From a virus (lineage: Duplodnaviria > Heunggongvirae > Uroviricota > Caudoviricetes): a stretch of 29,045 nt of DNA. The stretch covers positions 1 to 29,045 of IMG/VR virus record IMGVR_UViG_2579778652_000007, one strand, 5' to 3'. Of the stretch, positions 11,548 to 28,284 are shown piece after piece (position 1 is the stretch's first letter; every line of letters begins with the position of its first letter). The position numbers were made by a program, and so were the translations under genes. The notes below the pieces were generated by a model. That model was not told the DNA's origin, made no database searches, and was given only the letters and a program-made list of their open reading frames with translations.

Positions 11548-12221
11548 TGGCACCCACAATTTATCACCGTATCGACGGTACCAAATACAGGAATGTCTGG
11601 GTTGTTGGTGATCTGCATGGTTGCTACACCAGACTGATGTCCGAACTCCATCGTGTGGATTTTGACCCGGCGCAGGATTTACTGATATCGGTCGGCGACC
11701 TTATCGATCGCGGTACTGAAAATGTCGAATGTCTGGAACTATTGCAGATGCCCTGGTTCAGGGCAGTGATGGGGAACCATGAGCGGCTGATGATTGATGC
11801 GTTAAGTCCAGATGGCAACGTGAATAACTGGCTAATGAATGGCGGTCAATGGTTCTTCATGCTGGACGCTGATCAGGAAATATTAGCCAGGGCGCTGGTG
11901 GAGTTGGTAAGACGACTGCCCTATATCATTGAGTTGAACACCGGGCAAGAAACTATCGTTATAGCCCATGCCGACTATCCGGATAATGAATATCAATTCG
12001 GTAAGGAGGTGCCGCTTTTCAACGTTGTCTGGGCGCGCGAGCGTATCAGTGATTCGATGGATGATATTGGTGGCGAAATTTCTGGCGCAGATCGTTTTAT
12101 CTTTGGTCACACTCCGGTGAAAAGCCCGAAGACATTCTGGAATCAGCATTATATCGACACAGGTGCCGTATTTTGCGGAAACCTGACATTGATGAAAGTG
12201 AAAGGTGATGGTGCAGCATGA
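11544..12221 (+). CDS. ppp: Ser/Thr protein phosphatase, lambda PPase family (P1 Ppp-like)
   Basis: Near-collinear with lambda phosphatase: [30 protein letters not shown]; ATG overlaps upstream stop (ATGA); alternative start 11529 or 11547. Confidence 0.9.
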
Positions 12222-12919
12222 AGATTGCTTTAGTTCTTCGCTCTGGTGGTGACTATAACGCTTCCGATGTGCAGTGGCTGGTTAATCAACTGCCAAAAGG
12301 CTATGAAATTATTTGCCTGACAGACCTGAAGCGTTTACATGTACCTGGCGTCAAAGTTGTCCCATTGATCAACCAGTGGCAAAAGTGCCGTGGCTGGTGG
12401 GCGAAAATCGAGTTGTTCCGACCGGATATAACCGATGATCTGTTCTATCTGGATTTGGACACGGTTATTGCCGGTGATATACGCCCAATCCTAGAGAATC
12501 CACCAACCAGCTTCACCATGCTTAGGGATTTTTACCATCCACAATATCGTGGCAGCGGTGCCCTGTGGATACCAAATAGTGTAAAAGCGCATATCTGGAG
12601 TGCATTCTGGCAAGATCCGGAAGGTTGGATTGCTCGTTGTGTTACTACTGAATGCTGGGGTGATCAGGGGTTTTTGCGGAAGGTTATGGGTGATGATACA
12701 CCAGCATTTCAGGATCTGTATCCAGGATGGTTTGTAAGTTACAAGGCCGATGTTGTGGAACCTGGTTCAAAATATGCGAGCGCGCGTTACTCCAGGGGGA
12801 ATGGGGCATTACCAAAGGACTGCCGAATAATCTTTTTCCACGGCAAACCGCGACCTCGCGAAGTGTCAGAGGATTGGCTTCCCCTTATTAGCTCGTTTTT
12901 TGAGCGAGAATCAGAATAA
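12218..12919 (+). CDS. Putative GT-A fold nucleotide-sugar transferase (GT8-like)
   Basis: 233 aa; ATG overlaps ppp stop; FYLDLDTV (DxD) and C-terminal [10 protein letters not shown] resembling the H-x-x-G-x-x-KPW motif of GT8 enzymes. Confidence 0.6.
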
Positions 12920-12920
12920 T

Positions 12921-12937
12921 ATTGCTCTAATAATTCC
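12921..12937 (+). promoter_or_regulatory. C1-operator-like 17-mer ATTGCTCTAATAATTCC (14/17)
   Basis: Begins 2 nt after the stop of the GT8-like gene; forms an inverted pair with 12970-12986. Confidence 0.5.
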
Positions 12938-12945
12938 ATATTTTT

Positions 12946-12973
12946 AAAACGTGATGTACACTCATCACGTTTT
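12946..12973. terminator. Hairpin AAAACGTGATG-tacact-CATCACGTTTT, possible bidirectional terminator
   Basis: 11-bp perfect stem, T-rich 3' flank on plus strand, A/T-rich on minus; centred between the two inverted operator-like sites. Confidence 0.6.
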
Positions 12974-12986
12974 TTATTAGAGCAAT
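12970..12986 (-). promoter_or_regulatory. C1-operator-like 17-mer on minus strand (ATTGCTCTAATAAAAAA; 14/17)
   Basis: Reverse complement of 12970-12986; mirror partner of 12921-12937. Confidence 0.5.
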
Positions 12987-13000
12987 CTACAAGGTGCACT

Positions 13001-13219
13001 ATGTGGCCATTCCGACGGAAATATCACTACTGGCTGATCGCCTTTGTTACGCCGACCGGCGGTATCAGGCATGTCATCACCAGGTATCGCAACAAGAGAC
13101 TCACCTTAGCCAGAATTTTACAGGCTGCCATAGGTGAGGGACTGGATACAAATTGCGTAGTCCTTCCTCCTTCATACTTAGGAAAAATGACCGAAGCACA
13201 AGCTAATACGGAACTTTGA
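13001..13219 (+). CDS. Hypothetical small protein (72 aa)
   Basis: ATG with AAGGTG 4-5 nt upstream; stop 1 nt before next ATG (TGAAATG), suggesting translational coupling. Confidence 0.45.
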   Translation: MWPFRRKYHYWLIAFVTPTGGIRHVITRYRNKRLTLARILQAAIGEGLDTNCVVLPPSYLGKMTEAQANTEL

Positions 13220-13220
13220 A

Positions 13221-14483
13221 ATGAGCACTTCAGCACAAAACCAATCAATCGAAAATGTATCTATCCCTGATGTCCTGAATGCCGGTATCCCGGCCATTAT
13301 CCAGAACATCCGGGCCGCGCAACGCCGCGTTAGTTGTGATGACCTCACAGCACGTTTTTTTGATAATGCGGTTCAGTCAGCGGAGATGCTTCACGCACAG
13401 CTTATTGATGTTTATAACGCAGAAGCTGATAGCCATAACTCCCTGGTAGATGCAGCTGAAAATATGCAGTTGGATCTCGGTCTGAAGGGTAAAGAAATTG
13501 AAGAGCTTCAGCTGCAAATTGAACATTTGAAACGCCAGCAACAGGACGCGATCGACGATGCGACGCATGACGCCAACCAGCGTGCTGATAATGCCGAACG
13601 TATAAGCATTGAGCTGGAAACAAAACTCAATGAAATGACCGCGATGGTTGAACTGCGGAACTTACAGATTTCAACGCTAAAATCTCAATATAAAGAGATC
13701 ATGAAACTTGATCCTTTTAACCTTGAGAAACGCTATAACAAAGCTAAAAGCGAGCGACAGGAACTGCGTAAGCAGGTCGCCGACCTTAACCAACAGCTCA
13801 AAAAAACTATTAAAGATGCAAGCGAAGCGCGCGTGGCATTTGCTAATAAAAAAGCAGAGGTTACCGCGCTGGTTAATGAGAATGCCAAATTTGCGACGCT
13901 CAAGAAGGAAATGTATGGCATTACTGAGCGCCGTTTCCCTGCAAGCAAACTTCATCCGACGTTAGGGCAAATCTCCTTCTTCCCGCGCCTCCTGGCTTAT
14001 GGGATCTCATCGCCTAAAGAGTTCAATAACGAGCGTCCTTATATCGTTTCTAAGCTGGACTTTGCTTATCAGTTCTGCTGCGACATGGGCTATGCCATTG
14101 ATATCCGGATCAACGAATGGTTGATGCCAAACTTCCAGCCGTTGGCCATTTTCCGCGAGTTCCAGCCGGAAGGTTGGGTAGAGTTCTTCCATGAATTGAT
14201 CTGTAAAGAGATGGAAAGCCGCCGCCCGGAACTGGTCCGCCGTGTCGAGTGGGCGCAAGAGGTTATGTTGGCAGATGCAGAGCTGCCGTTCGAACCGGAA
14301 TTTATTGATGATCTGGCAGCTAAAGGGCTGCATACCCTGTTTGATGTGGTTACCCGCCGTCATGAGCAGTTGGTTGTCGAATTGGGTTTAGAGGAAACAG
14401 CGGCAAGAAGACTTCTCGATGTTTGCTATGCACGTAGCGATGCATGGGAAAAAGAGAACGGCGGCACTATTTACGTTCGCTGA
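13221..14483 (+). CDS. Hypothetical protein with long N-terminal coiled coil and distinct C-terminal domain
   Basis: 420 aa; residues about 60-230 heptad-like and charged (ELQLQIEHLKRQQQDAIDD...); C-terminal 190 aa Trp/Phe-rich. Confidence 0.75.
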   Translation: MSTSAQNQSIENVSIPDVLNAGIPAIIQNIRAAQRRVSCDDLTARFFDNAVQSAEMLHAQLIDVYNAEADSHNSLVDAAENMQLDLGLKGKEIEELQLQIEHLKRQQQDAIDDATHDANQRADNAERISIELETKLNEMTAMVELRNLQISTLKSQYKEIMKLDPFNLEKRYNKAKSERQELRKQVADLNQQLKKTIKDASEARVAFANKKAEVTALVNENAKFATLKKEMYGITERRFPASKLHPTLGQISFFPRLLAYGISSPKEFNNERPYIVSKLDFAYQFCCDMGYAIDIRINEWLMPNFQPLAIFREFQPEGWVEFFHELICKEMESRRPELVRRVEWAQEVMLADAELPFEPEFIDDLAAKGLHTLFDVVTRRHEQLVVELGLEETAARRLLDVCYARSDAWEKENGGTIYVR

Positions 14484-14503
14484 CAGTTACAGTGTCACTT
14501 TTA

Positions 14504-14537
14504 ATGCTGGTGGAGTGCGCCCACCAGCATTTTTTTC
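14504..14537 (+). terminator. Rho-independent terminator
   Basis: ATGCTGGTGG-agtgcgc-CCACCAGCAT followed by TTTTTTT, 21 nt after stop at 14483. Confidence 0.85.
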
Positions 14538-14555
14538 GTCCAATGAGGAGGGCAT

Positions 14556-15838: not shown

Positions 15839-16091
15839 GTCAAAATGCCAAATTAATGGCAACAAGATAGAACCGTGCGCGGCGTTGGCACAATCCCTGG
15901 AGCATGACGCTGAATACACGACGCGAAAAGGTCTGCTGAAATACAAAATCTATAACCATGAATTAATTCATTCACAAGACCTGATCATGCTGCGGTCTGG
16001 TGAATTTTCTAAATCGCCTATTCGAGTTTCATTTTGCCCGTTCTGTGGTGAAAGTCTGAAAACGTGGGAAGCGGAGGCAACCAGTGAATAA
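15831..16091 (+). CDS. Small hypothetical protein with C-terminal CPFCG motif
   Basis: GTG start overlapping upstream stop (GTGAGTGA); ORF track gives 15807 (TTG) as longest start. Confidence 0.45.
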   Translation: MSESKCQINGNKIEPCAALAQSLEHDAEYTTRKGLLKYKIYNHELIHSQDLIMLRSGEFSKSPIRVSFCPFCGESLKTWEAEATSE

Positions 16092-16728
16092 CCGCTTTTA
16101 CATGATGTGCTTGCGTGAAACTGTGGGTAATAACGCCTCATTCCATTGCCATAACGGCAATGGTTACAGTTCTGATATCGATCGCGCTCATGTTTACACG
16201 CTGGAAGAAGCCCAAAAAGCCTGGAATTGTGGACGAGATATCGATCAGCCTGTTTGCGCTGATAGCGTGGATGCAATGGCTGTGTGGCACGTTGATTGCC
16301 AGTACATCCCCACAGAAAGCCTGATTGAGTCAGATTGCACTGCGTATGTGGCCTACAAAAAAGGTAGCTGGAACGGCAACGATGTTTACTGGCTTCAACA
16401 CGGTGGATTGCCAACAGATGACTTCAGTAAGGTGACCATCTTTAGCGTCGCCAACAAAAACGAACCAGGAATAGTTTGGTTGCCATTTTCCATTGCTGAT
16501 GCAGCAAAGCGTCGGACGTTCAATATCAATAACTTTAACCGCAGAACAATGGTTCAGGGCGCAGGTTTGGTCATGCCTGACTGGTTGAAAGAGCAGAACA
16601 GAAGAAAGAAGTCGCGAAGCGGGAAGGTGCGTTGGAATTGTCCGCATTGCGGAAAAATAACCTGGCAGTACAGCCCATATGATTTTGAAGGCTGTAGTGA
16701 TTACAACTGTGAAGGATGGCGAGAATGA
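16084..16728 (+). CDS. Cys/His-rich hypothetical protein
   Basis: 214 aa; GTG start with GGAGG 8 nt upstream; motifs FHCHNGNG, WNCPHCGK, CEGW. Confidence 0.6.
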   Translation: MNNRFYMMCLRETVGNNASFHCHNGNGYSSDIDRAHVYTLEEAQKAWNCGRDIDQPVCADSVDAMAVWHVDCQYIPTESLIESDCTAYVAYKKGSWNGNDVYWLQHGGLPTDDFSKVTIFSVANKNEPGIVWLPFSIADAAKRRTFNINNFNRRTMVQGAGLVMPDWLKEQNRRKKSRSGKVRWNCPHCGKITWQYSPYDFEGCSDYNCEGWRE

Positions 16729-17354
16729 CAATTGACTATCAGGCACTGCGTGAGGCGGCGGAACGTGCAATTCCAGCAATGGAACGCCTGTTAATGTTGC
16801 CAGCTGATGATGATTTGTTAAGTGAACAGGAACTTAAAGATTACGGTGTGGGTATTGATGCGCTCAACGCCTTCAAATTTCTGGCCGGACCAGAAACCGT
16901 GCTGGCACTGCTGGATGAACGGGAAAGAAACCAGCAATACATCAAACGCCGCGACCAGGAGAACGAGGATATTGCGCTAACGGTTGGGAGGCTGCTAATC
17001 GAAAACGGCCAGCTTGTTGCCGATACGCTACGCCACTTAGCTGATAACGAAATCGACTCTGATTATTTTGCTATCACCTCAACGAATGAGAACGGTACTG
17101 AAATTGATCATGAGATGGCTATTACCGATTACGCACTGCAAGCTGCCGGAACTGTAGACGAATTGGTTGCGGCGCTGGAATCCGCAGAGAAGCGCATTGC
17201 AGAACTGGAAGCGCGGGAAATACTGCTCCCGGAACGTAGCAGCATGCTTCATCGAACAGATTTTCACGATGATTACCAAACGGTAATGGCATACAAAGTT
17301 TCTGAAGTCATCGATGCAATCCGCGCTACTGGCATTCGCATCAAAGGAGAGTGA
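16725..17354 (+). CDS. Ea22-like (ead/Ea22 family) protein
   Basis: N-terminus MTIDYQALREAAERA and acidic coiled-coil body typical of lambdoid Ea22-like proteins; ATGA overlap with upstream stop (alternative start 16716). Confidence 0.7.
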   Translation: MTIDYQALREAAERAIPAMERLLMLPADDDLLSEQELKDYGVGIDALNAFKFLAGPETVLALLDERERNQQYIKRRDQENEDIALTVGRLLIENGQLVADTLRHLADNEIDSDYFAITSTNENGTEIDHEMAITDYALQAAGTVDELVAALESAEKRIAELEAREILLPERSSMLHRTDFHDDYQTVMAYKVSEVIDAIRATGIRIKGE

Positions 17355-17355
17355 T

Positions 17356-17565
17356 ATGGCTATTGCCGCAAGTTACACCATGCATCTCTACTGTGATTGT
17401 CGCCAGTGTACAAATGGTAAATATCAAACGCCAGACTTCGGTGAGTATATCGGTACGTCATGGGCTGGCTGTGCAAAAGAGGCGCGCAAGGATGGCTGGC
17501 GAATAAGCAAAGACAAAACGCGTGCTTTTGCGCCCGGGCATAAAGTTTTGAGGATTAACAAATGA
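17356..17565 (+). CDS. Small Cys-rich hypothetical protein (70 aa)
   Basis: ATG with AAGGAGAG RBS; YCDCRQC motif; ORF track gives longer 17314 start overlapping upstream gene. Confidence 0.55.
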   Translation: MAIAASYTMHLYCDCRQCTNGKYQTPDFGEYIGTSWAGCAKEARKDGWRISKDKTRAFAPGHKVLRINK

Positions 17566-18449
17566 CCACTATTACCAAAGAGCGACTGCTGACAATCAAG
17601 CAGTGGCGCGAAACATACGGACCTGGTAGCAACGTTGTACTGCCAGCAGAAGAAGCGGAAGAACTGGCACGAATTGCTCTGGCATCGCTGGAAGCAAAAC
17701 CAATAGGTGCATTCCACATTGCAGAACAGCAAGTTGACGGCACAAGTGACTACCTCAAGGATGGAGAATGGCCTATTGATAATGGAATTATTGAGGTCTA
17801 CGCCGCTCCACCCGTTCCAGTAGTACCGGAAGAAAAACCAATGCCTAATCCTCTTAGCATGTACGCGGTTGATGCTGTTGCCGCTATTGCAGAGGTGATA
17901 GGCTGGAATGCCTGCCGTGCCGCTATGCTTCAGTCCGGAAACTTTCGGGAAAACAAGAATTCGTCAACCAATAATTTTCGGGAAATCGCGGAAACGTCAA
18001 CCAACTATCCGGTAATTCCTAGTGAGGTGTTGTCCGCAATCTTGAAGGTTGCCAAGATTCGTGCCGATTTCGATGATTTTGACGGTGACAGGCGAGGTAT
18101 CGGTGATTGTCTGGATGAGGCTGAGCAAGAGCTTATCGTTACCATTAACAAATATGCCAGTCAGTTGGCAGCAGAACCTATAGCGCCTAATGACGTTCGA
18201 GAGCAGACAGCCATTCCGCAAGTTCCGGTAACTCCGGATGGTTGGATAAGCTGTAGTGAGCGAATGCCGGATACCAAAACAGCCGTTCTTGTTGCCAGGG
18301 AGTTTGACAGGAAAGGTGACTGGCGAATGAAATGGGCGACTTACATCCCGGGGCATCCTGACGCTAATGATGGGTGGGTAATACCTGGTGCGTCGTGGAT
18401 TCCATCACACTGGATGCCGCTACCAGAACCGCCGCAGGAGGCGAAATGA
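17562..18449 (+). CDS. Hypothetical protein with DUF551-like C-terminus
   Basis: 295 aa; C-terminal DGWISCSERMPD...WMPLPEPP resembles DUF551; ATGA overlap with upstream stop. Confidence 0.7.
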   Translation: MTTITKERLLTIKQWRETYGPGSNVVLPAEEAEELARIALASLEAKPIGAFHIAEQQVDGTSDYLKDGEWPIDNGIIEVYAAPPVPVVPEEKPMPNPLSMYAVDAVAAIAEVIGWNACRAAMLQSGNFRENKNSSTNNFREIAETSTNYPVIPSEVLSAILKVAKIRADFDDFDGDRRGIGDCLDEAEQELIVTINKYASQLAAEPIAPNDVREQTAIPQVPVTPDGWISCSERMPDTKTAVLVAREFDRKGDWRMKWATYIPGHPDANDGWVIPGASWIPSHWMPLPEPPQEAK

Positions 18450-18706
18450 TGGATGTAAAAGAGAAGGTTTTGCAGGTGATGCGTTCCCGTGCTGCCCTAC
18501 AAGAGAAAGCTCTCGGCGGTGAATATCCATTCACGATAGCAACCTGGAATCTGCGGTTGGCAATGGAGAAGGAATTTCCTGATGAAGAATGGCGCTCGGC
18601 AGATTTGCGCAAAATTCTTATGGAGCTGGCTAAAGACGGAACAGTATCCAAAGATACCCATGCCAGCCGGATTGGTCAGGCGGTATGGAGACTTGAGGTG
18701 CGGTAA
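18446..18706 (+). CDS. Hypothetical small protein (86 aa)
   Basis: ATG overlapping upstream stop (ATGATG); ORF track gives longer 18374 start. Confidence 0.5.
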   Translation: MMDVKEKVLQVMRSRAALQEKALGGEYPFTIATWNLRLAMEKEFPDEEWRSADLRKILMELAKDGTVSKDTHASRIGQAVWRLEVR

Positions 18707-18780
18707 TGAGCTGGCCTGAAGCATTTGCGATTGTAGGCGTAGCTATGGCGATTGCCGCTATTTTTATCTTCTGGGGGTAA
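18706..18780 (+). CDS. Possible 24-aa hydrophobic peptide
   Basis: ATG overlaps upstream stop (TAATG); MSWPEAFAIVGVAMAIAAIFIFWG; 2 nt before next ATG. Confidence 0.3.
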   Translation: MSWPEAFAIVGVAMAIAAIFIFWG

Positions 18781-18782
18781 CG

Positions 18783-19016
18783 ATGGGAAAATTAACTTTT
18801 GTTGTCGAATTTGAGGATGGCAAAGAGCCACCTGTTAGCGCCAATCTTGATGTTGCTGGTGGCAGGCTGGTTTCGGTTCTATTTGGTGATTACCGCGACG
18901 ACTTCTTTCAGCCTGAAGAAGTTGATGTAGTGCGAGAAGCATTAAACGAGCTAAGTGTTGATAACGATGATGCTCATGCGGAAATCATCAAAAAAATGGA
19001 ACTGCTAACTCACTAA
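18783..19016 (+). CDS. Hypothetical acidic small protein (77 aa)
   Basis: ORF-track ORF; tight spacing with neighbours. Confidence 0.5.
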   Translation: MGKLTFVVEFEDGKEPPVSANLDVAGGRLVSVLFGDYRDDFFQPEEVDVVREALNELSVDNDDAHAEIIKKMELLTH

Positions 19017-19064
19017 ATTATCAATTATGGTGCTATCACCTACGACACCGAGAGAAAATTTATA

Positions 19065-19187
19065 ATGTCAAAAGTAAATGTTTTGATTTTTTCAGCAATT
19101 GTTGGCTTTGGTTTTACTGCCGGAGTGCAGATTTATATTGCGTGGGAAAAAATCATCAACTACGCATGGAGTTGTTTTATTAAGTGA
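19065..19187 (+). CDS. Possible 40-aa hydrophobic peptide
   Basis: MSKVNVLIFSAIVGFGFTAGVQIYIAWEKIINYAWSCFIK; stop 8 nt before next ATG. Confidence 0.3.
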   Translation: MSKVNVLIFSAIVGFGFTAGVQIYIAWEKIINYAWSCFIK

Positions 19188-19194
19188 GGTAAGT

Positions 19195-19488
19195 ATGTGG
19201 AGAGGTAATAGTCATGGCAAAAGCCAGATGATACTTACCGAATATCAGTTTGACCATAAAACCAATAAATCACGTTCAGTATATTTGCTTCGGCACAATA
19301 GCCGCGTAAGGAATACCGTACTGGAGCAAAATCTGACTGTTGAAATGGATAATTACGGTGGCTTCAAGCCAACAATTTCGCTTGATGATTTTCCTCGTGG
19401 TTTAAGCGAAAGAGAAGCAATGCTGAAATTAGCAGAATGGCTACAAAGATTAAGCATTGCTATTGAAGATAACTGGTCTGAACCTTAA
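19195..19488 (+). CDS. Hypothetical protein (97 aa)
   Basis: ATG with GAGG 6 nt upstream; ORF track gives longer 19099 start. Confidence 0.5.
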   Translation: MWRGNSHGKSQMILTEYQFDHKTNKSRSVYLLRHNSRVRNTVLEQNLTVEMDNYGGFKPTISLDDFPRGLSEREAMLKLAEWLQRLSIAIEDNWSEP

Positions 19489-19494
19489 ATTTAT

Positions 19495-19869
19495 ATGATG
19501 ACACTAAAACATTTTCTTGACCGCCCATTATGGGCGGCAGCCGCAGGCTATGACTTTAATTATATGGATTGCATGTCTTATACTGCCAATGCATACGACC
19601 ATTCGTTCAGCCTGCTGTTTAATTCTTTAAGAATATTGCCGGAAACAGAAGTTGGAGAGCTTCATTTATGGCTATTGGGCTTTATCGCGGCTGTCGTTGG
19701 TATTGCTGTATGGCCTTTTATTTTCTGGCTGGTGGCTGTTGTAGTGTGGTTTAAGTGCAAGACGTACCGGAGAAAGTATTTCTTAGGTGATGGAATGACT
19801 GATATTGCCAAAATGAACATTGAAAAATGGACTAAGGAATGTGAAAAGAAATGGCGCAAAAAGAAATGA
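19495..19869 (+). CDS. Hypothetical membrane protein (two predicted TM segments)
   Basis: 124 aa; hydrophobic stretch LWLLGFIAAVVGIAVWPFIFWLVAVVVWF; Lys-rich C-terminus. Confidence 0.6.
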   Translation: MMTLKHFLDRPLWAAAAGYDFNYMDCMSYTANAYDHSFSLLFNSLRILPETEVGELHLWLLGFIAAVVGIAVWPFIFWLVAVVVWFKCKTYRRKYFLGDGMTDIAKMNIEKWTKECEKKWRKKK

Positions 19870-20789
19870 CCAGAATCACTGAAGAGCGTATATCAGAGAT
19901 TATTTCCCGTATCGAAATGTATGGTCACGGTGCTGGATATACGGCAGATGAAGTATTGGCACTTGCCCAAATGGTTTTGGCGGCTTGCAAAGATGATAAA
20001 AAAATGAAGTTTATCGACTTGTTAGTGAAGGAGCTGCCTAAGTGCGGCGGGTGGCCTGATGGAATGAGTTATTGTTACCTACCCAGTGTCAATTTAATGG
20101 CACCATGCGCGACTTTTGCTTTTGGCTCAGACCACAAAAAAGACACTTTCTTTGGGCGCAATTTTTGTTGTGATATTGAGCTTCCAATTGGTGACCTTGA
20201 TAGCGATGAATACCAGTCAGTTGTCACTCGCGAACAATACGAATCAGCTCTCATAGCGTCGCAGAAAGTCGAGTTCAATGGTGATGAACTTGAAAGTAAG
20301 ACTTACAGGTTGGATTTTGGGCAATGGCTGGAACAGCAACGCGGGAAAATCGATGTGGACTGTGGTTGTGTGTCCACTGAAACATTCATGCACTGGCTGC
20401 GGGTAGCTTACGAGGCTGGCAACTATCCGGATATTCCGGATAGTTCGGTGCCAGCGCCAGGAAAGGGCGTCACCGGTGAACGTATCCGCATTAAGCCGCA
20501 TGTTTATCGCGAACTGGTTAACCGTCTCCACGATACAGCGATCAAGTGTGCTGGCACCCAGCAATTACGAGAAAAAATTAGCCGTGTTTTGGGCGACGTT
20601 ATTACGCCAGATCATCATAAACAAGCCGAGAAAAGTGGCCTGGAAAGGTGTCACCTTGAGGCGGCATTAAACATTAAGCCGGGGCATACGCTTGGCATTA
20701 TTGATGCACTATTGGTTCATAAGATGGCCAGGGCTTTATTGCCGCTGGTGGCTGATAAGCATGAGGCGGGCCATGCCAACGAAAGCTGA
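19866..20789 (+). CDS. Hypothetical protein (about 307 aa)
   Basis: ATG 19866 overlaps upstream stop (ATGA); ORF track start 19851; no motif recognised. Confidence 0.65.
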   Translation: MTRITEERISEIISRIEMYGHGAGYTADEVLALAQMVLAACKDDKKMKFIDLLVKELPKCGGWPDGMSYCYLPSVNLMAPCATFAFGSDHKKDTFFGRNFCCDIELPIGDLDSDEYQSVVTREQYESALIASQKVEFNGDELESKTYRLDFGQWLEQQRGKIDVDCGCVSTETFMHWLRVAYEAGNYPDIPDSSVPAPGKGVTGERIRIKPHVYRELVNRLHDTAIKCAGTQQLREKISRVLGDVITPDHHKQAEKSGLERCHLEAALNIKPGHTLGIIDALLVHKMARALLPLVADKHEAGHANES

Positions 20790-21057
20790 GTTACAGGCGC
20801 GCATAGAGATTCTTGAAAAAGAGAATGCGAGTCTAAAAGGAATGCTGGCGCGGGCGGAAAGGGAATTATCAGGCAAATTATTGCCAGAAGAACTGCCACC
20901 AGCAGATATACCAGATCGAGTGTCCCGGTGGATGAAGTCTTTTGGTTTACCGTGGGAGGCTTTTTGGTGCTACGAGCATCGCAGATGGTGTGATGAACTT
21001 GATAGCAGTTTCCCCTACTTTGCGGAAGGGAACACCTGCCCTGAGTGTAGGAGGTAG
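20773..21057 (+). CDS. Hypothetical protein with N-terminal coiled coil and C-terminal Cys motif
   Basis: 94 aa from ATG 20773 (17-nt overlap with upstream gene); AELQARIEILEKENASLKGML; C-terminal CPEC. Confidence 0.5.
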   Translation: MPTKAELQARIEILEKENASLKGMLARAERELSGKLLPEELPPADIPDRVSRWMKSFGLPWEAFWCYEHRRWCDELDSSFPYFAEGNTCPECRR

Positions 21058-21061
21058 CGCG

Positions 21062-21322
21062 ATGTTTCGTCCTCGTCCAATACCGCCGAAAATAACTAAT
21101 GGCTATCAGCCGAATACTCCAGAAATACAAGGGAGCGAGGGGCTTAAACCACCACCAGCACCACGTATTCCGCCTGTAGCAAGGAACGTATCATTACGAC
21201 GAGAGTTAATATTAGCCTTGTCGCCCGTTCTGGCTGCCCGCCAGGATTGGGTAAGTAATGATGACCTGGCAGAAAAAATCACATCGCTGGTGGATAAAAT
21301 TCTGCATAAAGCTGATCTCTGA
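21062..21322 (+). CDS. Pro-rich hypothetical protein (86 aa)
   Basis: ATG with AGGAGG 9 nt upstream; ORF track gives 20942 start overlapping upstream gene. Confidence 0.5.
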   Translation: MFRPRPIPPKITNGYQPNTPEIQGSEGLKPPPAPRIPPVARNVSLRRELILALSPVLAARQDWVSNDDLAEKITSLVDKILHKADL

Positions 21323-21332
21323 TCACCATGCT

Positions 21333-21365
21333 AAAATCCCCTCAATTCACAGAGGGGATTTTTGT
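21333..21365 (+). terminator. Hairpin with U-tract, probable terminator ending the accessory cassette
   Basis: AAAATCCCCTC-aattcaca-GAGGGGATTTT, 11 nt after stop at 21322. Confidence 0.7.
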
Positions 21366-21367
21366 CT

Positions 21368-21634
21368 ATGTTGCATAGAGTTTTATGGAAAAGCGTTATT
21401 GTCGGCGCGATACTGGCTATATCTGGGTGTGCAATGGTGCAATACAACGACGGTGAAAAGGTAAGCATACAGTCAGATGGTTGGTATGGCCTGGATAGCC
21501 TGCAAAAAACCGCAGATAAAGCCTGTCAGCAATATGGGAAGTCTAAAGCAGTATATCAGCATAGCGCGAACGCTAACCCTCATCTAGCGCCCGGTTCGGG
21601 TGTTCAGAATACCATCTGGAAATGTGAGCCTTAA
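21368..21634 (+). CDS. Small lipoprotein (P1 Upl-like position)
   Basis: Signal peptide plus lipobox (LAISGC); ATG 21368 with AGAGGGGA upstream; ORF track start 21362 (TTG). Confidence 0.7.
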
Positions 21635-21636
21635 AT

Positions 21637-21888
21637 ATGAGCGACTGGAATATTGCAGCTAAAAGTCAGGAAGAACGGGATAAGGTTAACGTTGATCTGG
21701 CTGCCAGCGGTGTGGCGTACAAAGAGCGATTGAACATACCTGTCATAGCTGAACAGGTAGCCCGCGAGCAACCAGAGAATCTGCGCACCTATTTCATGGA
21801 ACGGCTACGGCACTACCGGCAGTTAAGCCTCCAGTTGCCAAAAGGGAGCGATCCGGCATATCAGAAAGATGATGCCGTAAAGAAATAG
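21637..21888 (+). CDS. hot: Homolog of DNA polymerase III theta subunit (HolE); P1 Hot-like
   Basis: 83 aa; [43 protein letters not shown] closely parallels E. coli HolE. Confidence 0.85.
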
Positions 21889-21894
21889 CGGTAG

Positions 21895-22467
21895 TTAACC
21901 GTTTTGAACTTCTCGTATCCTGGCAATGACAGCTTCATGCTGGGCTTGGATAGCGGCTTTTTCGTTTTCAAGCCGGGCAATAGACATCTCTAATTCTTTG
22001 CTGTACCAGGCGAGCTGGGCCAGGTTCATCCGGTTGTGGTCGAGAGTTGGAGACACTTCGACGCGATCCCTTTCTTCCTGCTTTAATGAGAAGAGATTCA
22101 TCTCATCCCTTGAGGAAAATTCAGCAACAATTTCTTGTTGATGATCCGGTCGCTGCGGCATCCTCGCCAGTATAAATGGCGGTTCTTTTGAAAACATGAA
22201 TGACGGTTTAGACCGTGTTTTGACCCATCTAGCTTGCTGTCTTTCGGCAAGTTCACAGGCTTCATCATAGTTATCTACAAAACCAAGCACGGATGGACGG
22301 TCCCACGCGCCACCATTCAGACAATAAACAAGAATTTTCCCGTCAGGTTCTGTAACTCCATAGGGATGGTCCCACCAGGCGTCCAGCTGGGCTTTGGAGC
22401 GTTTCTCGTTAGGAGTGCAGTCAAAATTTTTGGGCAATGCAGGATCGAGAGGAATGCGGGCAGGCAT
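21895..22467 (-). CDS. Hypothetical protein divergent from humD (lxr-like position)
   Basis: 190-aa ORF; RBS AAGGA 7 nt upstream on minus strand; LexA box about 135 nt upstream. Confidence 0.65.
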   Translation of the reverse strand: MPARIPLDPALPKNFDCTPNEKRSKAQLDAWWDHPYGVTEPDGKILVYCLNGGAWDRPSVLGFVDNYDEACELAERQQARWVKTRSKPSFMFSKEPPFILARMPQRPDHQQEIVAEFSSRDEMNLFSLKQEERDRVEVSPTLDHNRMNLAQLAWYSKELEMSIARLENEKAAIQAQHEAVIARIREVQNG

Positions 22468-22601
22468 GGCTAATTCCTTATTAATTGATTAGTAACGAGG
22501 TTACGCTGATCCAGCGGTGATGAATAGTAGCAAAGCGCACAAAGTCATCAGAGGGGTTAAGATCCATAACGCGTTTGCACCAAAGGTGTCTCTTTAATGT
22601 A

Positions 22602-22621
22602 TACTGTATAAATGAACAGTA
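22602..22621. promoter_or_regulatory. LexA (SOS) box TACTGTATAAATGAACAGTA
   Basis: CTGT-N8-ACAG palindrome 20 nt upstream of humD ATG, overlapping a TATAAA -10-like hexamer. Confidence 0.75.
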
Positions 22622-22640
22622 TTATTGAGGTGAAAACGCT

Positions 22641-23030
22641 ATGGGCTTCCCTTCTCCTGCGGCGGATTATGTTGAAAGCCGAATTTCTCTTGATCAGCAA
22701 CTAATCAGGCATCCATCAGCAACCTACTTCATGCGGGCAGCTGATAGCCATCACCGTGAGGGAATATTGCAGGGTGCTTTGCTGGTGGTTGATTCTTCGC
22801 TTACTCCAGTTGATGGTTCGCTGCTTGTGTGCGCTATGGAGGGTGAATATCGCATAAAGAGATACCGAAAGTATCCGCGCCAGCACCTGGAGGATTTAAG
22901 CACCGGGAAGAAAGAGGCGTTACCAGTAGATGACGATGGATGCACGGGAAGTAATGCTGTTTTTGGTGTGATCACTCATGTCATCAATGATGCCCGAAGT
23001 GGGGAATTTGATGATTGTCCGGTCATTTAA
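22641..23030 (+). CDS. humD: UmuD-prime-like SOS mutagenesis protein (P1 HumD-like)
   Basis: 129 aa beginning MGFPSPAADYVE, i.e. at the position where UmuD is cleaved (Cys24-Gly25); HPSATYF and VFGVITHVI conserved; Ser and Lys of S24 dyad region present. Confidence 0.9.
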   Translation: MGFPSPAADYVESRISLDQQLIRHPSATYFMRAADSHHREGILQGALLVVDSSLTPVDGSLLVCAMEGEYRIKRYRKYPRQHLEDLSTGKKEALPVDDDGCTGSNAVFGVITHVINDARSGEFDDCPVI

Positions 23031-23064
23031 GCTGCAAAGGGCTGGTGCTTTATGCCTGTGAGGT

Positions 23065-23094
23065 TTATAATTGTGTACACATAACGAGTACACG
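23065..23094 (+). promoter_or_regulatory. phd-doc promoter/operator: TATAAT followed by palindromes TGTGTACACA and GAGTACAC
   Basis: Perfect 10-bp palindrome 23072-23081 and related half-site 23086-23093 between -10 and the phd RBS. Confidence 0.55.
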
Positions 23095-23102
23095 AGGTGT
23101 TT

Positions 23103-23324
23103 ATGCAATCCATTAACTTCCGTACCGCGCGCGGCAACCTTTCTGAAGTGCTCAACAATGTTGAAGCCGGGGAAGAGGTTGAAATCACTCGCAGAGGCCG
23201 TGAGCCAGCAGTAATTGTCAGCAAGGCTACTTTCGAAGCCTACAAAAAAGCGGCGCTGGATGCTGAATTTGCATCCCTGTTTGACACCCTGGACTCCACC
23301 AACAAGGAACTGGTTAACCGATAA
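23103..23324 (+). CDS. phd: Phd antitoxin (Phd/YefM family)
   Basis: 73 aa [49 protein letters not shown]... matches P1 Phd as remembered. Confidence 0.95.
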
Positions 23325-23704
23325 TGAGGCATATATCACCGGAAGAACTTATTGCGCTTCATGATGCGAATATAAACCGCTACGGCGGCCTGCCGGGAAT
23401 GTCAGATCCGGGTAGGGCAGAGGCCATTATCGGGAGAGTTCAGGCCAGAGTTGCCTACGAAGAGATCACCGACCTTTTCGAAGTCTCCGCCACCTACCTG
23501 GTGGCTACAGCGAGAGGGCATATATTCAATGATGCCAATAAGCGTACCGCGCTAAACAGCGCGCTGCTATTTCTACGCCGTAACGGGGTGCAGGTATTTG
23601 ATTCACCTGAACTGGCAGACCTTACTGTAGGCGCTGCGACTGGCGAGATATCTGTATCTTCTGTCGCCGACACGTTACGTAGATTGTATGGTTCTGCGGA
23701 GTAG
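23324..23704 (+). CDS. doc: Doc toxin (Fic-fold kinase)
   Basis: 126 aa; Fic motif [11 protein letters not shown]; ATG overlaps phd stop (TAATG). Confidence 0.95.
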
Positions 23705-23708
23705 ATTA

Positions 23709-23888
23709 ATGGCACGCAAATACAACAAATTGTCCCGTGAAGCGTTAAAGATGCTTCTTGATGGCGTGAGTCGCCGCGAGGTAAAGCAATACCTGGTTGG
23801 TAAGCAAATTGGAGCCAGGGCTGCTATTGCTGTGTTATGCCGTCAGGAAATGGTTGTGCTTAAACAGAGAATGCCGGGCAGCAGATAA
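23709..23888 (+). CDS. Small basic hypothetical protein (59 aa)
   Basis: ATG 4 nt after doc stop; ORF track gives longer 23688 start overlapping doc. Confidence 0.45.
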   Translation: MARKYNKLSREALKMLLDGVSRREVKQYLVGKQIGARAAIAVLCRQEMVVLKQRMPGSR

Positions 23889-23915
23889 AGCCCAATCAGT
23901 GATGAAAGGTGTGAT

Positions 23916-24959
23916 GTGAAAGCCGTAATTACTCCCTTTGTACAAAAAGAGCTTGGCGTCGCCACATTCAAAGTGGATCAGGAAGTCAGAAAGCTGGTGG
24001 AGGCTGGCCGTAAATTTATTATGGAGCCGGTGCCGCGTGAGTTAATCGAGCACATGGAAGACGGCCTCGTTGTTACCGAGCAAACCATGGCAACAAATGA
24101 GGCGTTGCAGCCGTTTTTTAACAGCGATGAACTGTTTCGCCGTATTGGTGGAATTGACTCGCTGGTGGCGTGGTTGCGCAGGAAAGAGGGGCAATGCCAG
24201 GCCGCAGATCGTAGCTGGTGTGACAACCATATTGTCCACGCAGAACGAGACAATAGCGCGGTGTTGTTGTGCTGGCATCACGATAACCATTACCGGATGC
24301 GTGGTTTTAATGAGCTGAAAGAAACGCTGCACAATAATCGCGTTAACTGGATACTGGATGTCGCCCGTCAGGAAATGGGCCTTTCAAATAGCCATGATTT
24401 AAGTATTCAGGAGCTGTGCTGGTGGGCTTTCATGCGCAACATGATGCACCTGATGCCGGAAGAAGTCTGCCGCATATCAATAAATAAGATGAAGGCTACT
24501 CCGCAGGATAGCGGACCTCTGAAAGAGGCGGATATTCGCCCGTATGACGATCGCGCTACAGCATATGTTCAGATGATGGAAGAACGCGCCGCGCCGATGC
24601 GTGCAAAAGTATGCCCTGTGGATGTTGACTCCGACCCAGGTATGGCGCATTTCAAAATACCAAAACTTCAATCGCTAAAATTGCCCGAGTACATGGACTT
24701 TGTGGCTTCCCGTCCATGCTGTGGCTGTGGAGCTGCGGGAGCTGGCGCTCACATTACGCCTTATATCGTTCGTCATAGTCGATTATGCGCGCATGACATT
24801 TATGCTATTCCTCTGTGCCAGTCATGCCAGCGTGATATTGAGCGTGACCGCGATAATTGGGAGAAGACGCACGGTAGGCTGGCGATGCATCAACGATTGT
24901 TCTTTGATTACGCGCTTGGAGTCGGCGCTATCACAAGTCACTCGTCGAGCGTTAGATAA
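23916..24959 (+). CDS. Hypothetical protein with C-terminal Cys/His cluster
   Basis: 347 aa; GTG start with AAAGG upstream; C-terminal [17 protein letters not shown]...[18 protein letters not shown]. Confidence 0.65.
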
Positions 24960-24960
24960 A

Positions 24961-28267: not shown

Positions 28268-28284
28268 CTTGCTCTAATAAATTG
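28268..28284 (+). promoter_or_regulatory. C1-operator-like 17-mer CTTGCTCTAATAAATTG (15/17)
   Basis: Begins 4 nt after the pacB stop. Confidence 0.55.

Follow-up and report, generated by a model that had tools for sequence, protein, structure and literature searches.

The stretch of DNA analysed here, referred to below as the window, comprises 29,045 nucleotides of a virus of the Caudoviricetes (IMG/VR record IMGVR_UViG_2579778652_000007, positions 1 to 29,045) and represents a P1-like phage-plasmid. Between positions 12400 and 13500 the identity to phage P1 was 98.5%, and the identity to RCS47 was 99% over the same interval and 100% locally. The element in question is a composite palindrome of 66 bp at 12921-12986, located between the genes pmgQ and pmgR and present in 687 plasmid records of PLSDB. 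On its upstream side, pmgQ (open reading frame (ORF) 12218-12919, + strand, aligned to P1 pmgQ at 81449-82150) is the last gene of the pmgN-pmgQ unit; its TAA stop codon, taken from the ORF listing, occupies 12917-12919 on the + strand, and the 5' edge of the palindrome lies 2 nt past it. On the downstream side, the 3' edge lies 14 nt ahead of the ATG of pmgR (13001-13219, + strand, a 72-codon ORF corresponding to P1 pmgR), and a Shine-Dalgarno-like AAGGTG is seen in the sequence between them at 12991-12996 (+ strand). The second gene of the controlled unit is pmgS (13221-14483, + strand, 420 aa, corresponding to P1 pmgS). Gene pmgR is essential; its deletion leads to unjoined heads and tails, and the knockout phenotype was complemented in trans (PMC9024508).

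The flanking genes are all encoded on the + strand. For PmgQ, which carries the RefSeq name 'glycosyltransferase', no Pfam family was found at E ≤ 0.01, and the GT8-like label given to it in the original prediction, which had been made from the sequence before this analysis, was not reproduced. No Pfam family was found for PmgR either. An Rfam scan of 12700-13300 on both strands gave no match at E ≤ 1, and the c1 gene is not within the window. The only − strand candidate for a gene needing termination here was a 70-aa ORF with a GTG start at 12787-12999, which lies inside the 3' end of pmgQ and is regarded as spurious.

The 66 bp read ATTGCTCTAATAA-ttccatattttt-AAAACGTGATG-tacact-CATCACGTTTT-TTATTAGAGCAAT, and the palindrome predicted at 12921-12986 is real and consists of two nested inverted repeats, both perfect. 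The outer arms (12921-12933 and 12974-12986) are 13 nt long and 100% complementary, with 40 nt between them, and the inner arms (12946-12956 and 12963-12973) are 11 nt long and 100% complementary, enclosing a 6-nt loop. Both repeats are far above chance. In 300 dinucleotide-preserving shuffles of the window, 0.04 perfect 13-nt inverted repeats with arms at most 60 nt apart were expected per shuffle and one was observed, and for perfect 11-bp hairpins five were observed against 0.1 expected. The outer arms had been described as an inverted pair of operator-like 17-mers; both 17-mers are indeed operator-like, but perfect symmetry covers 13 nt only, and the last four bases differ.

The outer 17-mers coincide with annotated operators of the phage repressor C1, which bears out their prediction as operators. 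The first, OpmgRa (former Op86a; ATTGCTCTAATAATTCC), is located at 12921-12937 on the + strand and corresponds to P1 82152-82168 and to P7 Op(sht a), and the second, OpmgRb (former Op86b; ATTGCTCTAATAAAAAA), is located at 12970-12986 on the − strand and corresponds to P1 82201-82217 and to P7 Op(sht b). In the P1 record AF234172 both are annotated as protein_bind sites for 'phage repressor C1', and the remark on OpmgRa states that it 'corresponds to former Op86a; controls expression of pmgR and pmgS'. The C1 operator is an asymmetric 17-bp sequence with the consensus ATTGCTCTAATAAATTT, and 22 operators have been counted (PMC8546580). Each of the two 17-mers agreed with this consensus in 14 of its 17 bases; bases 1-13 are free of mismatches, which are confined to the last four. 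Six operator-like 17-mers were found in the window where 0.14 were expected, and three of the other matches are the annotated P1 operators Op83, Op88 and Op94. The identity assigned to the outer arms is thus based on orthology to annotated sites, with binding by C1 taken from the GenBank annotation and from binding studies of 1987-1989. The operator pair in front of pmgR is already known, and the GenBank entries of P1 and P7 have carried it for roughly twenty years; the searchable literature, which does not include the P1 genome paper (Lobocka et al. 2004), contained no mention of Op86 or OpmgR.

To compare the element among relatives, about 200 loci were fetched; they contained 23 distinct versions, and the alignment was made from 21 of these. 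The sample of variants is small and the sequences are related. Across the roughly 200 loci, the 17-mers were under purifying selection relative to their flanks. The first 15 nt of OpmgRa did not change in any of the 21 distinct variants, and the only exceptions to invariance in operator positions 1-13 were a single base of one contig and the first position of OpmgRb in the two diverged lineages described below; 11 of the 13 outer-arm pairs never varied. The bases directly after OpmgRb (12987-12992) varied freely among near-identical contigs, and the AAGG/AGGG core of the pmgR Shine-Dalgarno sequence just 3' of them was kept. In Cronobacter phage JK004 and Salmonella plasmid pCFSAN058588, which differ from the window by about 30% at the nucleotide level, a 60-nt interval holding the element was 77-80% identical, compared with 50-52% for the 50-60 nt upstream and 65-70% downstream. 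PmgQ, PmgR and PmgS have diverged to a similar degree in these two lineages (69-79% identity), and the order pmgQ-pmgR-pmgS was constant in every relative examined.

The arrangement was also found in much more distant plasmids. In Citrobacter freundii pRHBSTW-00697_3 (PmgQ 52%, PmgR 33% and PmgS 25% identical) and Pantoea CCBC3-3-1 unnamed3, the P1 operator word is gone, and face-to-face repeats of 17-20 nt stand directly upstream of the pmgR homologue around a −10-like hexamer. In the Citrobacter plasmid the repeated word is about ACAGAMAATACTAATT and recurs in at least nine copies, which fits the operator set of a repressor; in the Pantoea plasmid it is ACAAAAGATACTAAAAT, at 1177-1232 of the fetched locus. 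Both words share just a CTAAT core with the P1 C1 operator. Judged from these sequences, an inverted operator pair ahead of pmgR is an old, conserved layout, and the Citrobacter and Pantoea plasmids look like representatives of a separate immunity specificity in the P1-like group. Searches for further diverged copies yielded little: a scan of genome contigs with PmgS returned only two near-identical Escherichia coli loci, the 80 loci found in IMG/VR with an alignment of PmgS were at 99-100% identity, and a pattern search for a TATCAT-type loop gave chance matches only. Further pattern scans added one new variant, the metagenomic JK004-like locus L330.

The predicted pmgR promoter is nested in the operator pair. 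In AF234172 the predicted sigma-70 promoter PpmgR is placed at 82153-82181, corresponding to 12922-12950 (+ strand) of the window, with a −35 hexamer TTGCTC (12922-12927) that falls within OpmgRa, a 17-nt spacer, and a −10 hexamer TAAAAC (12945-12950). Published RNA-seq of P1vir (Table S1 of PMC8201110) supports an early promoter within the element, as annotated. At 10 min in the wild-type host, the log fold changes were 7.05 for pmgQ, 9.02 for pmgR and 9.99 for pmgS, with the genes from pmgN to pmgQ spanning 5.4-7.4; in the dksA host they were 6.23, 9.00 and 9.09, respectively. Expression therefore steps up 4-8-fold from pmgQ to pmgR and pmgS in both hosts, and the rise is situated exactly at the pmgQ/pmgR junction, which is what supports a promoter inside the element.

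The position of the −10 hexamer may have to be revised. The annotated TAAAAC lacks the final T; several P1-type contigs have TGAAAC or TAAAGC in its place, and JK004 has TGAAGC. The hexamer in the hairpin loop (TACACT, 12957-12962, + strand) is an alternative candidate; P1 likewise has TACACT there, whereas the Salmonella-type lineage and JK004 have TATCAT, so that T1, A2 and T6 are kept across all three hairpin-bearing lineages, and TATCAT also occurs between the operator arms of the Citrobacter plasmid. The candidates were ranked with a rough promoter position weight matrix (PWM), in which the annotated promoters P1ban (7.8) and Plpa (8.6) came out as top hits. The loop was the top candidate, and the central hexamer ranked first in 5 of the 5 lineages examined. 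By this comparison, the −10 of the pmgR promoter may be the loop hexamer TACACT rather than TAAAAC. OpmgRb would then span about +1 to +18 of the transcript, or +13 to +29 with the annotated −10. An Lpa-dependent late promoter was also considered and rejected; the resemblance of the 5' arm to the −22 box of either LPhot (AAGTTACTT) or LPpac (ATGTGACTT) is only partial, no −10 stands at a suitable distance from it, and the expression of pmgR is early.

The inner hairpin (12946-12973, + strand; stem AAAACGTGATG/CATCACGTTTT, 6-nt loop) has the anatomy of an intrinsic terminator on the sense strand. Its stem begins 27 nt past the pmgQ stop codon, contains 4 G-C pairs, and is followed on the + strand by UUUUUUAUU. 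RNA folding, which had been proposed as a check on the palindrome, gave a stem-loop that in P1 has the same energy whichever strand is folded, −13.4 kcal/mol (z about −4.5 to −5.8), and that on the + strand has a U-run directly after it. This U-tract is encoded by the T-run TTTTTTATT at 12970-12978 (+ strand), which overlaps the 3' tail of OpmgRb, and it exists because OpmgRb ends in AAAAAA and not in the consensus AAATTT. The corresponding positions of the element (T50-T55, A56 and T57) were invariant in all aligned variants.

The comparative signature of the stem points in the same direction. In P1 the 5' arm is AAAACGTGATG, the loop tacact and the 3' arm CATCACGTTTT; in the Salmonella-type lineage they are AAAACATGGTG, tatcat and CACCATGTTTT, and in JK004 GAAGCATGGTG, tatcat and CGCCATGTTTT. 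Two stem pairs show a double compensatory change (G-C to A-U and A-U to G-C), and in six others a single side has changed, with G·U pairs as the outcome. Among the non-Watson-Crick cells of the 21 variants, in a tally made partly by hand, 12 are G·U pairs on the + strand, 3 would be G·U pairs on the − strand and 4 are transversions, and the stem departures of L330 are G·U pairs only. The + strand fold is maintained at −13.4 kcal/mol in P1 and at −14.0 kcal/mol in both the Salmonella-type lineage and JK004. The most likely explanation of this anatomy and covariation, on which the proposed terminator is based, is selection for an RNA hairpin with a U-tract on the sense strand, that is, an intrinsic terminator for pmgN-pmgQ transcripts.

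Together, the operators, the nested early promoter and a weak sense-strand terminator would form a control point between two transcription units, an interpretation to which a probability of roughly 0.7 is assigned. The operators face each other at 49 bp from centre to centre, and C1 bound to them would shut the pmgR-pmgS promoter in the lysogen. This sigma-70 promoter, lying between the operators or overlapping them, would fire early once repression is lifted. Transcripts of pmgN-pmgQ would be halted by the hairpin and U-run in the + strand RNA, acting as a rather weak terminator, and the 3' tail of OpmgRb (AAAAAA on its own strand) would serve also as the U-tract. With either choice of −10, transcription from the pmgR promoter would begin inside or after the hairpin, and these transcripts, having no 5' arm, would be expected to escape termination.

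A more detailed version of this model is put forward only tentatively and is rather doubtful as a whole. In it, 66 bp would carry four overlapping signals (two operators, a terminator and the next promoter); the hairpin loop would be the −10, the GenBank −10 being misplaced; the U-tract would be a degenerate operator tail; transcripts lacking the 5' arm would escape termination; the layout would be older than the split in operator specificity; and the hairpin would have been added in the clade of P1, JK004 and the Salmonella-type lineage.

Several results weigh against the control-point interpretation or parts of it. The hairpin was not called in the terminator prediction, a consensus scan of 12000-14000, since the scan takes the maximal stem including four A-U pairs and leaves the T-poor tail TTATTAGA; a sigma-70 consensus scan of the same region at 9/12 matches also found nothing at the element. 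With the rough PWM, TTGCTC-17-TAAAAC scored 4.4 and TTCCAT-17-TACACT 5.6, both near the background median of 4.8. With −13.4 kcal/mol, the stem is also less stable than those of the other terminators in the window (−17.6 to −18.3 kcal/mol). The compensatory changes would equally preserve a DNA palindrome, and the strand asymmetry of G·U pairs amounts to about 9-10 vs 3 independent events (one-sided p about 0.07), which is suggestive but not significant. At 30 min, pmgQ, pmgR and pmgS reached similar levels (11.66, 10.81 and 11.70; PMC8201110), with pmgR about 0.85 log units lower than pmgQ; gene-level RNA-seq cannot tell termination, if any, from promoter activity or re-initiation. The Citrobacter and Pantoea lineages keep the operator pair without the hairpin, so the operator-promoter function does not need it. 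In addition, no mapped transcript 5' or 3' ends at the element were found in the searchable literature. In the parts of the P1 record AF234172 that were examined (about 22 kb), terminators are not annotated anywhere, not even where genes converge, and for this reason their absence at the element is uninformative.

Among other explanations, the one that survives best, while being considered unlikely, retains the operators as they are and assigns to the hairpin a role in RNA other than termination, either as a protective 3' stem-loop on a processed pmgQ message or as a site for RNase III or other processing. The covariation and the + strand G·U signature apply equally to such a structure, and in read-through RNA the whole 66 nt folds as a helix of −26.4 kcal/mol, a possible RNase III substrate; the weakness of the stem relative to neighbouring terminators and the equal levels of pmgQ and pmgS at 30 min agree with it as well. 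What argues for the terminator instead is the invariant U-run, produced by a departure of OpmgRb from its consensus; such a run is required for termination but not for processing. Moreover, the outer helix is accounted for by C1 binding, and no compensatory change is seen where position 1 of OpmgRb varies.

It is improbable that the inner palindrome acts at the DNA level, as the site of a second dimeric regulator or as a cruciform, with no role in RNA. The palindrome is perfect in P1, its symmetry is kept by the compensatory changes of the Salmonella-type lineage, and it overlies the core promoter, where a regulator would act. However, 3 of 11 positions in JK004 and 2 of 11 in L330 break the DNA symmetry and yet form G·U pairs in the + strand RNA, and most polymorphisms within the P1-type contigs are likewise of the G·U type. 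P1-type and Salmonella-type elements share their operators and differ in the stem, so that a DNA-level role would require a co-evolving second protein.

The combination put forward in the original prediction, a bidirectional terminator together with a looping or roadblock operator pair, is given a very low probability; in this reading, C1 bound at both arms would stop upstream polymerases in the lysogen. In P1 the hairpin is symmetrical, with the same stability on each strand, and two repressors 49 bp apart would sit in the path of read-through. This symmetry is not maintained among relatives, since the hairpin of JK004 has −14.0 kcal/mol on the + strand but only −5.8 kcal/mol on the − strand, where it can be regarded as lost. 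With every flanking gene on the + strand, no − strand transcription is directed toward the element. The − strand tail reads UUUUAAAAAU. A separate C1 operator (Op83/Oppp, 9297-9313) serves the upstream unit, and this would leave little read-through to block in the lysogen. With 49 bp between their centres, the operators of the element are also close together for a protein-mediated loop.

The other origin proposed for the palindrome, a recombination or mosaic junction where gene modules meet, can practically be dismissed: the 50-60 nt upstream of OpmgRa are the least conserved stretch and the Citrobacter PmgQ is better conserved than its PmgR and PmgS, but that stretch is the C-terminal end of pmgQ, the three proteins are about equally diverged in both lineages that keep the element, and comparison of the junction across genomes showed a constant gene order and an element better conserved than its flanks.

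The control point proposed here has close counterparts. OpmgRa/OpmgRb with PpmgR in P1 and Op(sht a)/Op(sht b) in P7 have the same sequence, position, orientation and spacing as the element; nothing essential sets them apart from it. The records examined carry no terminator annotation for the inner hairpin and place the −10 at TAAAAC, which is doubtful by comparison. Op72ab (Obanab) at the ban promoter of P1 is also an inverted pair of C1 17-mers in which the TTGCTC of the first operator is the −35. The ban operators overlap (28 bp in total) and are combined with a good −10, TAATAT, whereas the operators of the element are 32 bp apart, enclose a hairpin and are combined with weak promoter hexamers. 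In the Citrobacter pRHBSTW-00697_3 and Pantoea pairs, the centre-to-centre distance is 36-37 bp compared with 49 bp, the operator word is another one, and there is no inner hairpin. With respect to the hairpin, the terminators of the window after dbn, after pmgS and after the ORF ending at 21322 are alike in having an A-tract, a perfect 11-bp stem, a short loop and a T-tract soon after a stop codon; the hairpin of the element differs from them in its less G+C-rich stem, in a U-tract shared with an operator, and in the promoter of the next gene nested within or around it.

The element is therefore a known P1 regulatory element (Op86a/b and PpmgR), and the comparative evidence for an embedded terminator and a central −10 is a modest refinement of its annotation, not a new kind of system. 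Three additions would be useful for P1 phagemid engineering and for annotating P1-like phage-plasmids that carry resistance: a probable terminator by which pmgN-pmgQ is insulated from the early unit pmgR-pmgS, a likely new position for the −10 of the pmgR promoter, and the retention of the operator-pair layout with a different operator word in distant P1-like plasmids. Since pmgR is essential for head-tail joining, designs for conditional lysis could sensibly be directed at its control point. Past careful annotation its importance is little, and it opens no long-standing question.

Downstream of pmgS, a perfect 11-bp hairpin followed by a T-run (T7) at 14503-14538 (+ strand; AATGCTGGTGG agtgcgc CCACCAGCATT; −18.1 kcal/mol) is a canonical intrinsic terminator that closes the pmgR-pmgS unit. 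It begins 20 nt past the pmgS stop codon and is unannotated in the stretch of the P1 record examined. In the published RNA-seq at 10 min, expression falls from 9.99 for pmgS to 8.45 for pap (PMC8201110). With a hairpin on either side, pmgR-pmgS looks like a self-contained, C1-controlled unit fenced by hairpins. Perfect 11-bp hairpins with an A-tract and a T-tract were also found at 4447-4473, between the convergent dbn and gene 5, and at 21333-21362, behind the ORF that ends at 21322; the two probably act as terminators. A further perfect 11-bp palindrome, AACTATCCGGA-tat-TCCGGATAGTT at 20421-20445, lies inside the ORF 19851-20789 and has no T-run.

At 28268-28284 (+ strand), a C1-operator-like 17-mer with 2 mismatches (CTTGCTCTAATAAATTG) is located 3 nt after the pacB stop codon and is followed by a T-run. 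At the equivalent place in P1 there is no operator match and c1 follows, and downstream of pacB in the window, in RCS47 and in JL22 an Icd-like/antirepressor module is found; the 17-mer is probably the C1 operator of this module. Between the end of the pmgV-like gene and the lpa operator (24961), the window contains about 9 kb (~15840-24960) compared with about 4 kb in P1, and the accessory content of this region differs from the P1 reference.

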